Below are positions 26,417 to 29,267 of a stretch of 64,000 bases of DNA, one piece after another. The position numbers and the translations under genes were made by a program. Position 1 is the first letter of the stretch. Every line of letters begins with the position of its first letter. The stretch is from positions 320,001 to 384,000 of the forward strand of contig CAWDOD010000003.1 in the NCBI GenBank assembly GCA_963803805.1, read 5' to 3'. Source of the stretch: an uncultured cyanobacterium. Lineage in GTDB: Bacteria > Cyanobacteriota > Cyanobacteriia > Cyanobacteriales > CAWCAG01. A model generated the notes under the pieces. The model saw only the letters and a list, made by a program, of their open reading frames with translations. It had not been told where the DNA came from and did no database searches.

Positions 26417-27181
26417 TTATTTTTTTTCTTTAAAAGGGCTTTCTGCTTCGAGTTGTTTGATCTGTTTTTGTAGGGCAGTTAATTTTAAGCGTAGTTGAGA
26501 ATCTTCCTGGATATCAAGAAGGCGACAGAGGCGATCGCGCATTTTTTGGTGATGTCTTAAGGTTGTGTCCCAATCTCCTTGTAAACCGTAGCTACGACTA
26601 TTGATTTGTTCTTCTGGCAAGCAGAAAAATACGCCACCATCAGTACGTTGAATACTTCCTTCCCAAAGGTCAAAAACCCTAGCATTGCCTGTAATAGGGC
26701 TATTGCTATTTTGACTGCCATAGATATGAAGACTTAAAAATTCTGATTGTCCTGAGTTACCCATTTGGTGAATAAGTTCGCCATCAACTAATTTTACTTC
26801 TTGGGGTGCAAAGTCTATTCTTTTGGTGGTTCGCAGTATGCCATGTCTAAATTTATAAACGTAATGTTCTGCTATACCAAAACATTGTACTGCACCCCAT
26901 TGAGTGCAACCGTGATCATGAATGGCACTATAATCCCCTGGACTCCAGGACATGACCATGACTTCAAAATGACCTCCATCGTAGACTAGCTGGCGACCAT
27001 AGCTATCAGGAAGGGGATGATTAAAGTTTGCCCAAGGCATTAATTCTTGCGGTGCAATGTTGGCTTTTAAGATGCAGTTACGAACCCCTTCCGGAGTTAA
27101 AATCGAATGTTTTTTCAAACTATTAATTAGCGATTGCAAACTCTTGGGTAGCAATGGAGTTGCATTAGTAGCTTGAATCAT
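26417..27181 (-). CDS. Cysteine dioxygenase-type cupin
   Basis: SYGRQLV, WSPGDYSAIHDHG, IHQMGN and SLHIY motifs. Confidence 0.8.
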   Translation of the reverse strand: MIQATNATPLLPKSLQSLINSLKKHSILTPEGVRNCILKANIAPQELMPWANFNHPLPDSYGRQLVYDGGHFEVMVMSWSPGDYSAIHDHGCTQWGAVQCFGIAEHYVYKFRHGILRTTKRIDFAPQEVKLVDGELIHQMGNSGQSEFLSLHIYGSQNSNSPITGNARVFDLWEGSIQRTDGGVFFCLPEEQINSRSYGLQGDWDTTLRHHQKMRDRLCRLLDIQEDSQLRLKLTALQKQIKQLEAESPFKEKK

Positions 27182-27506
27182 TTTTCTAATCCTTTAACTA
27201 ATTTATTTCTAAGGTAGAAACTAATACTTAAAGAAATCTGATAAATGTTCATTTTAGCCTTAGAATAGTTTGAGCAAATTCTTAGGTAATCCTCATCTAA
27301 AGTATAAATAGTGAACCTATGCTAACTATGATAATTTTAGTAATTTACATATGATATAGATGTAAAACGACATAGATATGAAGGCTTAGAGGCCAGTGCT
27401 TATGAAAGCTGGACTAATTTAGTCAGCGCTGGGGGAAATATGCTTCAGAAGTTGGAGAGAAACATAAAATTAATTTTGCTTAAGTACTTACCTATGGTTA
27501 TCTTGC

Positions 27507-27535
27507 TTGACGAAAAGAAGACCTTTTGTTAAAGT
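27507..27535 (+). promoter_or_regulatory. Sigma70-type promoter of the aromatic leader / DAHP synthase transcript
   Basis: TTGACG-17 nt-TAAAGT with an extended TGn. Confidence 0.65.
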
Positions 27536-27562
27536 AAGCAAAGCTATTAGATATCGTCAATA

Positions 27563-27619
27563 ATGTTCTCCAGTTTCCAGGATTTTTACTTTTGGTTTAA
27601 ATCGGTTCGCCGCGAGTGA
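27563..27619 (+). CDS. Aromatic-rich leader peptide 1, MFSSFQDFYFWFKSVRRE
   Basis: 18 codons with 5 Phe, 1 Tyr and 1 Trp; its 3' part can pair with the 5' arm of the downstream terminator. Confidence 0.8.
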   Translation: MFSSFQDFYFWFKSVRRE

Positions 27620-27647
27620 ATCTAGCTTTGTCTGGAATCTCCCGGTG

Positions 27648-27677
27648 GACCGCAGAATTAAAACTGCGGTCTTTTTT
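27648..27677 (+). terminator. Attenuator terminator 1
   Basis: GACCGCAG-loop-CTGCGGTC followed by TTTTTT. Confidence 0.85.
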
Positions 27678-27713
27678 ATTGCTCGAATTTTCCCAACTCC
27701 GTTCCAAAACACC

Positions 27714-27770
27714 ATGAGTTTCTACTTTTATTACTTTCACTTTTTTTGGCCTAGACAAAGTTCCGGGTAG
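27714..27770 (+). CDS. Aromatic-rich leader peptide 2, MSFYFYYFHFFWPRQSSG
   Basis: 18 codons with 5 Phe, 3 Tyr and 1 Trp; AAGTTCCGGG duplicates the 3' arm of terminator 2. Confidence 0.85.
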   Translation: MSFYFYYFHFFWPRQSSG

Positions 27771-27794
27771 ATAGCCTCATGCCGTTGTTTTATC

Positions 27795-27828
27795 AAGCCT
27801 GGAACTGAATCAAGTTCCGGGCTTTTTT
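27795..27828 (+). terminator. Attenuator terminator 2
   Basis: AAGCCTGGAACT-loop-AGTTCCGGGCTT followed by TTTT. Confidence 0.85.
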
Positions 27829-27866
27829 ATTGTCCTACTACTATAAATTAAAGGAATCATTGCTTC

Positions 27867-28724
27867 ATGTTAGGTGCTAAACTCGCCCTCAAATCTCTAT
27901 CTCAACCCACAAGTCTGATCAACATATCCGATCAAGTTACCATCGGTGGTTCAGAAATTGTTATTATTGGTGGCCCCTGTGCGGTAGAAAATTTAGAGCA
28001 AATGGAAACTGTTGCAGAAAAACTTGCAGCAACTTCAGTACAAGCTTTGCGGGGTGGAGTCTATAAACCTCGCACCTCTCCCTACTCTTTTCAAGGATTA
28101 GGTAAAGAAGGATTAGATATTTTTACTACTATTAAGAATCGTTGGCATATACCTGTTGTTTCAGAAGTTATGGCTATTAGTCAAATTGAAGAGATGACTG
28201 CTTGTATCGATATGTTCCAAGTTGGTAGTCGTAATATGCAAAACTTTGATTTGTTGAAAGCTTTAGGACAAGCAGGGAAGCCAGTATTACTTAAACGAGG
28301 TTTGGCTGCAACCCTAGAAGAATTTATTTTCGCCGCAGAATATATTTTAAGTCACGGTAACTCCCAAGTTGTTTTTTGCGAAAGGGGTATCCGTAGCTTT
28401 GATAATTACACTCGTAATGTTTTAGATTTGGGTACGGTAGCAGCTTTAAAACAGTTAACTCACTTACCTGTAATTGTTGATCCTTCCCACGCCGCCGGGA
28501 GAAGAGAGTTAATTGCGCCTTTGGCTAAAGCGGCGATCGCCTGTGGTGCTGATGGTTTGATTATCGAATGTCACCCCACCCCCAAAGAGTCTATTTCTGA
28601 TGCTAGTCAAGCTCTTTCTTTAGAAGAAATGGTAAGTTTAGTTGCTGATCTCAAACCTATTGCTAAAGCAGTAGAACGCAATATAGCAACTTCATCACCT
28701 AGTCGTGAACTTTCTTTAGTTTAG
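27867..28724 (+). CDS. aroF: DAHP synthase, type I-beta, catalytic domain only
   Basis: IGGPCAVE, RGGVYKPRTS, GSRNMQNF, CERGIR and DPSHAAG motifs. Confidence 0.92.
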   Translation: MLGAKLALKSLSQPTSLINISDQVTIGGSEIVIIGGPCAVENLEQMETVAEKLAATSVQALRGGVYKPRTSPYSFQGLGKEGLDIFTTIKNRWHIPVVSEVMAISQIEEMTACIDMFQVGSRNMQNFDLLKALGQAGKPVLLKRGLAATLEEFIFAAEYILSHGNSQVVFCERGIRSFDNYTRNVLDLGTVAALKQLTHLPVIVDPSHAAGRRELIAPLAKAAIACGADGLIIECHPTPKESISDASQALSLEEMVSLVADLKPIAKAVERNIATSSPSRELSLV

Positions 28725-28730
28725 CTTTCC

Positions 28731-28772
28731 GGTTGGCAGTTTCCTGGATTCAACATTCAGCCTCTGCCAACC
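28731..28772. terminator. Hairpin downstream of the DAHP synthase
   Basis: GGTTGGCAG ... CTGCCAACC, between convergent genes. Confidence 0.5.
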
Positions 28773-28835
28773 TTCTACAACGATAATCTAAATTCATATC
28801 CTAAATTAAGCAATGCCAAAAAAGCTTTGCAGTAT

Positions 28836-29267
28836 CTAATCCAAATAAGCAAAAAAGCCTTCAGGAACAAGTCGCAATTCCCTACAACTAAACTTATTTA
28901 TATCTACCCAAAGAGCCTTTTTCTTTTTCTTCCCTTCCTGAAAAATCATTTCTGTTAACTCATAGAACTTATTATCTTTAAAATCGCACTGATAAAGTTG
29001 AATGATTTCATGACCAGTCTCTCCATCGCAAGTAAAAATATTTTCCAAACAACTAAGATATTTAATATTTGTTAATTCTGCTTGTATTTCTTCTTGAAAC
29101 TCTCTTTGTAAAGCTTCTAAACTAGTTTCACCAAAATCTACGCCACCTCCCAAAGCACGGTAAAACATATCTTTTTTAAAAGAGTCATGTCCCTCAGAAA
29201 CAAAGATGCGATCGCCCTCACGAATCAAACCCAAAGCAATAACCCGTATTTTCTTTTTCTTGGTCAT
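28836..29267 (-). CDS. NUDIX hydrolase
   Basis: Nudix box GGGVDFGETSLEALQREFQEEI; likely start MTKKKK at 29267. Confidence 0.9.
   Translation of the reverse strand: MTKKKKIRVIALGLIREGDRIFVSEGHDSFKKDMFYRALGGGVDFGETSLEALQREFQEEIQAELTNIKYLSCLENIFTCDGETGHEIIQLYQCDFKDNKFYELTEMIFQEGKKKKKALWVDINKFSCRELRLVPEGFFAYLD

Follow-up and report, generated by a model that had tools for sequence, protein, structure and literature searches.

The stretch of DNA analysed here, 64,000 nt from an uncultured cyanobacterium (GenBank assembly GCA_963803805.1, contig CAWDOD010000003.1, positions 320,001 to 384,000 of the forward strand) and referred to below as the window, raises the question of how the gene for a short 3-deoxy-7-phosphoheptulonate (DAHP) synthase is controlled. 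An earlier note on this DNA, made from the sequence alone, had described a promoter followed by two consecutive modules ahead of the gene, each comprising an 18-codon open reading frame (ORF) packed with Phe, Tyr and Trp codons, a hairpin and a T-run, and had read the modules as ribosome-mediated attenuators. Comparison with related genomes backs every structural element of that reading, namely the ORFs, the position of their stop codons, the helices, the promoter and the link to the gene. What was seen directly comprises the sequence elements and their conservation, covariation in both alternative helices, and the exclusive gene link. Very probably, a single transcript carries two ribosome-mediated leader-peptide transcription attenuators in series, and these control a DAHP synthase devoid of an allosteric domain.

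Organisation of the tandem element

The element reads, in the 5' to 3' direction, promoter, leader ORF 1, terminator 1, leader ORF 2, terminator 2 and DAHP synthase gene, all on the plus strand. The claimed promoter is present at 27507-27535; it is of the sigma-70 type, with TTGACG as the -35 box, a 17-nt spacer ending in TGT (extended -10) and TAAAGT as the -10 box (9/12 consensus matches), and transcription would start at about 27542, ~7 nt past the -10 box. Both modules were recovered by ORF reading and by a terminator scan, which found two terminator-like sites versus 1.1 +/- 1.0 in shuffled sequences. All elements described for them stand, with the adjustment that leader ORF 2 starts at 27714.

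In module 1, leader ORF 1 (MFSSFQDFYFWFKSVRRE; 27563-27619) is an ATG ORF of 18 codons and a TGA stop codon, with seven F/Y/W residues in all, of which F8 Y9 F10 W11 F12 make up the putative regulatory codons. Leader-1 codons 14-18 (27603-27616) pair with 27639-27652 to form antiterminator 1 (27603-27652), which has a small inner hairpin in its loop. Terminator 1 (27647-27678) consists of a stem-loop of nine pairs at 27647-27672 (GGACCGCAG..CTGCGGTCT) and the T-run TTTTTTATT, and the segment GGACC is common to terminator 1 and antiterminator 1.

Module 2 is built in the same order. Leader ORF 2 (MSFYFYYFHFFWPRQSSG; 27714-27770), also an ATG ORF, has 18 codons followed by TAG and includes nine F/Y/W residues. 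Antiterminator 2 (27759-27806) is formed by AGTTCCGGGT (27759-27768), which covers the S-S-G codons and the first base of the stop codon, and GCCTGGAACT (27797-27806). Terminator 2 (27795-27830) has a stem-loop of 12 pairs at 27795-27824 (AAGCCTGGAACT..AGTTCCGGGCTT) followed by TTTTATT, and its 3' arm repeats the last leader-2 codons, AGTTCCGGG (S-S-G). The start codon of the synthase gene lies 36 nt past terminator 2. The statement that the end of each ORF can pair with the 5' arm of the terminator agrees with nascent-RNA folds, in which antiterminators 1 and 2 have energies of -24.2 and -17.6 kcal/mol, respectively.

The two modules have antiterminator arms that nearly copy each other (27604-27614 and 27759-27767; consensus GGTTCACCGGG and AGTTCCGGG, respectively), and both come after a ..TTT TGG.. 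block at equal spacing. The likeness of the arms GTTCACCGGG and GTTCCGGG suggests that both modules may have originated by tandem duplication of one old attenuator.

Conservation of the leaders in related cyanobacteria

Orthologues of the synthase gene were collected in two sets. A protein search of 61 related genomes at >=65% identity gave 21 loci, and a search with one genome per species added 80 further named loci (combined n=101) from Nostoc, Calothrix, Microcoleus, Laspinema, Stenomitos, Coleofasciculus, Symploca, Hydrococcus, Leptolyngbyaceae, Elainellales and others. Upstream of the gene, one or more small ORFs rich in aromatic residues were present in 21/21 loci of the first set, and one or more aromatic leaders in 75/80 of the second. 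The five loci scored as having none are L040, L063 and L092, with 102, 365 and 258 nt of upstream DNA, respectively, as well as L104 and, finally, L038, whose leader lies further upstream although it was counted in the scan. Alignment of the orthologous upstream regions thus revealed both conserved aromatic leader ORFs and, as set out in the following section, covarying stems.

The two leaders belong to two distinct conserved classes. The leader-1 class, '..YFYFWF..VHRE*', occurs as an ATG ORF in 86/101 loci, ~300 nt ahead of the synthase gene, and the leader-2 class, '..WFYGFYFWPRxSSG*', in 76/101 loci, ~155 nt ahead of it; loci seemingly without an ATG ORF for one module mostly have a GTG start or an in-frame extension that masks the start. 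The 82 distinct leader-1 peptides have a median length of 18 aa and contain on average 3.2 F, 2.3 Y and 1.2 W, with all three residues present in 81 of them. For the 69 distinct leader-2 peptides, the median is 20 aa, the means are 3.8 F, 2.4 Y and 1.7 W, and 68 contain all three. The commonest spacing places the last aromatic codon seven codons ahead of the stop codon in both classes (58/82 and 59/69 distinct peptides, respectively).

In the 86 aligned leader-1 rows, the core codons are Tyr (TAC in 53, TAT in 17), Phe (TTT in 82), Tyr (TAT in 70, TAC in 10), Phe (TTT in 71) and Trp (TGG in 83). The Tyr codons therefore vary synonymously while the residue stays aromatic, and the N-termini of the leaders vary across loci, which argues for selection on the meaning and position of the codons rather than on the fold of a peptide. 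The position of the stop codon relative to the antiterminator arm is fixed. The conserved C-termini are explained by RNA pairing: GGTTCACCGGG, which encodes V-H-R-E in leader 1, is the complement of CCCGGTGAACC, and the S-S-G codons of leader 2 likewise form a pairing arm.

Profiles built from the alignments of module 1 (A2) and module 2 (A3) were searched against the same loci using nhmmer, which found module 1 in 93/101, module 2 in 98/101 and both in 91/101. The tandem layout is therefore the rule. Two of the ten loci without both modules have merely 102 and 365 nt of upstream DNA.

The promoter is conserved together with the leaders. The pattern TTGACN-N16-18-TANNNT was found upstream of leader 1 in 76/85 distinct loci and in 0.6% of shuffles, the TGn extension in 74/85, and the end of the pattern usually lies 43-50 nt ahead of the leader-1 start codon. 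In the alignments of relatives, leader 2 starts ~20-35 nt past the T-run of terminator 1, a spacing that leaves no space for a separate promoter.

Covariation of both alternative helices

The antiterminator 1 helix is paired in 94.3% of cells of alignment A2, with both-side changes in 6/11 pairs, and the terminator 1 helix is 99.2% paired in 86 sequences, with both-side changes in 5/9 pairs. Of 74 sequences for module 2, alignment A3 comprises 71, the other three being long, aberrant variants that were omitted; in this alignment, the antiterminator 2 helix is 93.0% paired with both-side changes in 3/9 pairs, and the terminator 2 helix 93.8% paired with both-side changes in 4/10 pairs. All four helices exceed every slid control, and the shuffle controls were exceeded too. 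An example from the same genus is locus L003, in which CTGTAG/CTACAG replaces CCGCAG/CTGCGG of terminator 1. At A2 column 126, which belongs to both module-1 helices, A is changed to G in 11 sequences together with a U to C change in the terminator partner, and a G-U pair is kept with the antiterminator partner. This coupled change is as predicted by selection on both conformations.

Two further features of module 1 were observed. Despite its position outside the antiterminator, the core of the terminator-1 stem, CCGCAG/CUGCGG (27650-27669; A2 columns 128-133 with 151-156), has each pair conserved in 80-86 of the 86 sequences, which span many families, and is unusually rigid for a terminator stem. 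In addition, RNAalifold predicted a 5-bp hairpin, UUCAC/GUGAA, that surrounds the leader-1 stop codon (27605-27621; A2 columns 78-82 with 88-92), is nearly invariant and has no both-side change; the stop codon itself is TGA in 78/82 distinct peptides. This hairpin might act as a weak anti-antiterminator or to cause pausing. No comparable hairpin was seen in module 2.

The rigid core bears on the possibility that a trans-acting factor (a TRAP-like or PyrR-like RNA-binding protein, a small molecule or, as with T-boxes, an uncharged tRNA) flips the attenuators and that the ORFs are incidental. The core could mark the binding site of such a factor, and the lack of a Shine-Dalgarno sequence at the leaders in the window would also fit. 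However, a factor would not require ORFs that keep their start, frame and aromatic codons with synonymous variation and that stop directly past the antiterminator arm. Furthermore, a cmscan of 27000-29000 with E up to 10 gave no match to the T-box family or to the Rfam leader families (Trp, Phe, His, Thr and Leu); the eight weak matches obtained, all to other families, are far below the gathering scores. Control by a trans-acting factor is thus considered improbable, and sensing by the translating ribosome remains the preferred reading.

Exclusive link to the synthase gene

As the loci above had been collected via the protein, the association was also examined from the DNA side. Among 401 genomes from across the phylum, a module-1 DNA pattern alone matched 50, a lower bound because the pattern, being strict, fails to match even the window itself. 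The reversed control pattern matched none. All matches fall within the order or class of the window, and neither the 29 genomes of family f44 nor the part of the phylum outside the class gave any. The gene for the short DAHP synthase follows on the same strand, 186-261 nt further downstream, in 28 of the 30 pattern loci examined. The two exceptions are L136 (G101:C49), where a deletion fuses module 1 to a synthase fragment, apparently a pseudogene, and L139 (G207:C1), where module 1 is intact, inserted DNA stands at the start of module 2 and no synthase gene is present within 1.5 kb.

These results concern a second alternative, that the units are two separate small genes with their own terminators, whose products are hydrophobic aromatic micro-proteins or small RNAs, and that the synthase gene has its own promoter. 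Each unit does end in a good terminator, and in Sinorhizobium, according to the part of the literature available on that genus, leader peptides and RNAs derived from attenuators are able to act in trans. Independent genes would nevertheless not be expected to precede the synthase gene in 28/30 loci found independently of that gene, nor to have C-termini (VHRE and SSG) explained by RNA pairing next to N-termini that are not conserved. The 36 nt between terminator 2 and the synthase start contain no promoter-like site; none was found by a scan of the plus strand from 27536 to 28398. This alternative is therefore regarded as very unlikely, although the released RNAs or peptides may have a role in trans besides attenuation.

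Within the genome that contains the window, nhmmer found both modules at this locus only. A second match to the module-2 profile (C2:1330519-1330592, E 1.8e-4) was rejected as a chance match, having no terminator and no plausible gene context. A genome-wide scan for other leader-peptide candidates, which was crude and missed module 2, gave 991 terminator-like sites and 59 candidates, none of them convincing besides this locus. Also rejected was a candidate branched-chain attenuator at C7:157372-157496, where an I/L/V-rich ORF with a TTG start (MVLLIWCNIIICIKN) precedes an ilvD-like gene, and the hairpin is weak (5 bp). Equal weak nhmmer matches were given by an identical 49-nt stretch present at 12 places in the genome (for example, C10:90562-90610 and C3:163649-163697), and identical small ORFs such as MLLDIFEYFTHYFWLKILFYLLLS occur on several contigs. 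These are a dispersed repeat family, unrelated to the attenuator.

Four metagenome-assembled genome records with leaders, L090, L104, L105 and L110, carry the labels Gloeobacterales, Candidatus Melainabacteria, Candidatus Obscuribacterales and Proteobacteria. Because no genome outside the class of the window matched the module-1 pattern in the phylum sample, these labels may reflect mis-binning.

On its other side, the 685-nt intergenic gap that ends at the DAHP synthase gene is bounded by a divergent cupin/CDO-like gene (26417-27181, minus strand; PF05995, 29.5 bits).

Two DAHP synthases with different regulatory equipment

The gene downstream of the modules (27867-28724, plus strand) encodes the first enzyme of the shikimate pathway, as had been stated. 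The 285-aa product is a short-form DAHP synthase of type Ibeta, matching NF006421 with 386.9 bits (cut-off 335), TIGR01361 with 348.7 bits and PF00793 with 254 bits over residues 20-260 of 285. PF00793 is its only DAHP-synthase-related Pfam domain, the FXD regulatory domain (PF18152) being absent; two further, unrelated Pfam families match more weakly. A second type Ibeta DAHP synthase of 352 aa, 49% identical to the short form, is encoded on the minus strand at C2:854576-855307 (locus L002:1471-2529), and has the ferredoxin-like regulatory domain PF18152 at its N-terminus (residues 1-67). Neither an aromatic leader nor a profile match was found at the gene for the 352-aa paralogue in any of the 10 loci examined. 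A type II DAHP synthase (PF01474) had no match in the genome, which is 97% complete.

In Thermotoga-type enzymes, the ferredoxin-like domain mediates feedback inhibition. Judged by its domain content, the short synthase would lack feedback inhibition, and its presumed lack of allosteric control provides a rationale for control at the RNA level. The two enzymes suggest a division of labour, in which the 352-aa enzyme is allosteric and has no leader, and the 285-aa enzyme is RNA-controlled and has no regulatory domain.

Proposed mechanism and its weak points

In the mechanism proposed, leader translation, ribosome stalling, termination in vivo and a multiplicative effect of the two modules are predictions from sequence. 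Transcription would begin at the single promoter, and a ribosome would translate the 18-codon leader in each module. With Phe-, Tyr- and Trp-tRNA all charged, the ribosome would reach the stop codon and cover the last 4-5 codons, which constitute the 5' arm of the antiterminator; the terminator hairpin would then form and the polymerase would stop at the U-tract, at ~27678 in module 1 and ~27830 in module 2. If any of the three tRNAs is poorly charged, the ribosome would stall in the F/Y/W block, at least 10-12 nt upstream of the arm, leaving the arm free to pair with the 5' arm of the terminator, so that no terminator forms and the polymerase reads on. To reach the synthase gene, the polymerase would have to pass both checkpoints. 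Read-through would thus be the product of two probabilities, giving a sharper response and lower leakage.

The distances are consistent with this mechanism. A ribosome footprint extends ~12-13 nt downstream of the A site, and the Trp codons start 10 nt (leader 1) and 12 nt (leader 2) ahead of the antiterminator arm; a ribosome stalled there would therefore leave most or all of the arm free, and one at the stop codon would cover it. When the stretch covered by a ribosome at the stop codon was masked in the folds, only the terminators formed. No convincing anti-antiterminator was found in either module by folding or by RNAalifold. With such a two-state design, untranslated leaders would default to read-through, and suppression of this leak by the second module is a plausible reason for the conserved duplication.

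Several observations weigh against the proposed mechanism. The minimum-energy fold of the full-length RNA without a ribosome keeps both terminators and only part of antiterminator 1; as the terminators win at equilibrium, any regulation would need to be kinetic. The overlap between antiterminator 1 and terminator 1 is just ~5 nt. Neither leader within the window is preceded by a Shine-Dalgarno sequence, as the earlier note had cautioned, whereas AAGGAG precedes leader 2 in many Nostoc-type loci. A single module is present in eight loci whose upstream DNA extends to 900 nt or more, so that two modules are not obligatory. Since the relatives are not independent, the shuffle statistics overstate the support and are not read as probabilities. 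In addition, 139 of the 28,132 ATG ORFs of 12-30 codons in the genome have at least seven F/Y/W residues including all three; such ORFs are common in this AT-rich genome, so the composition of the leaders alone is unexceptional and the case rests on the comparison. Finally, the statement that each module senses all three aromatic amino acids may be too strong, because the aroR leader of Corynebacterium glutamicum responds to limitation of Phe, not of Tyr, in the available part of the published account (PMC11802643).

The equilibrium folds, which favour the terminator hairpins regardless of the ribosome, would suit a third alternative, in which control is post-transcriptional: stalling in the leader alters the stability of the mRNA or translation of the synthase, and the hairpins are stabilisers or processing sites. 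Conserved T-runs after both hairpins are not accounted for in this way, and the ribosome-binding region of the synthase gene lies outside both conserved helices, leaving post-transcriptional control with a very slim probability. Transcription attenuation by the translating ribosome is thus preferred. Judged by the sequence comparison, the combination of elements together with their conservation is beyond chance, and the tandem element is real and conserved and almost certainly functional.

Relation to known systems

In Escherichia coli trpL and pheL, codons for the end product of the pathway are placed in a short ORF that is followed by an intrinsic terminator, and a ribosome at the stop codon masks the 5' arm of the antiterminator. 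Each cyanobacterial module resembles these in having a leader ORF, a terminator and a maskable antiterminator arm. However, the cyanobacterial leaders mix F, Y and W codons instead of those for one amino acid, two full attenuators stand in series, no clear 1:2 anti-antiterminator was found here, and the host is a cyanobacterium in whose genome no Rho was found over the family cut-off (best 28.4 bits versus 509.45). In sequence the element is unrelated to trpL and pheL: it is outside the curated Rfam leader families, though on the proposed mechanism it works like them. Serial terminator-based switches with a sharper response are also known as tandem T-boxes and tandem riboswitches, in which a tRNA or metabolite is sensed by the RNA alone. 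The cyanobacterial element has serial terminators like these, but the proposed sensor is the translating ribosome.

An aromatic leader peptide ahead of a DAHP synthase is not new in itself. The aroR-aroF attenuator of C. glutamicum was reportedly described by Neshat et al. (2014). As described in the part of a later account available, a leader peptide containing Phe-Tyr-Phe precedes the DAHP synthase operon, and stalling raises read-through (PMC11802643). Compared by that description, aroR-aroF shares with the cyanobacterial modules an aromatic leader ahead of DAHP synthase, but is a single attenuator from an actinobacterium, for which no Trp codon is mentioned. Similarly, the uORFC-13-1 motif, reported only from Acholeplasma and environmental sequences, has a predicted upstream ORF with Phe codons directly before a terminator stem, upstream of aroF (Brewer et al. 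2021, PMC8632094). The available text presents it as a prediction, with a single unit in which the U run codes for at least one Phe, unlike the cyanobacterial tandem.

Two short ORFs in one leader with serial control are known from the 'tandem attenuators' of Salmonella mgtCBR, where, in the portion of the source available, they govern stem-loop choice and transcription into the coding region (PMC3641672). According to the same description, the mgtCBR ORFs are not copies of one design, their signals are different and their operon does not serve the synthesis of amino acids, whereas both cyanobacterial modules would read the same three amino acids.

The claim that attenuation is poorly documented in cyanobacteria agrees with a statement in the accessible text of Korolev et al. 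(2016, PMC4833913) that there are 'no reliable data' on it. No cyanobacterial aromatic attenuator was found in the literature, subscription journals and supplements aside, so that an earlier description is possible. In a survey from 2026 that covers RNA structures of 202 cyanobacterial genomes, the main text, as far as available, does not contain attenuat-, aromatic, DAHP or shikimate (PMC12873609), and leaders and attenuation are unmentioned in the available main text of a 2016 survey of small RNAs in heterocystous strains (PMC4734099). The terms cyanobacteria, aromatic and DAHP are absent from PMC2965389. The name ncl0160 in PMC4734099 was considered as an earlier designation and rejected; in the text available it is a conserved RNA for a small peptide, comes from Synechocystis and encodes 23-25 aa, and hence is a different element. 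What appears to be new is the serial duplication of a two-state aromatic leader-peptide attenuator, in a phylum for which the mechanism seems not to have been documented.

Implications

A wider reading of the locus can be entertained, tentatively and with more doubt than confidence. On this reading, classical ribosome-sensed attenuation would have its first well-supported cyanobacterial case here, with the polymerase and the lead ribosome tightly coupled in a phylum without Rho. The two-state checkpoints in series would square the dose-response and cancel the leak from uncoupled polymerases, the modules would descend from one ancestral unit, and the released RNAs (~135 nt and ~290 nt) or peptides would possibly act in trans.

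If the proposed mechanism holds, the locus would place textbook leader-peptide attenuation in cyanobacteria and give a directly testable handle on transcription-translation coupling in the phylum. It would also provide a natural, widely conserved case of two attenuators of identical logic in series, a design principle for steep control with low leakage. For annotation, the gain would be two unannotated small ORFs and four RNA helices at the locus in roughly a hundred species, and the split control of two DAHP synthases would be relevant to the engineering of cyanobacteria for aromatic products.

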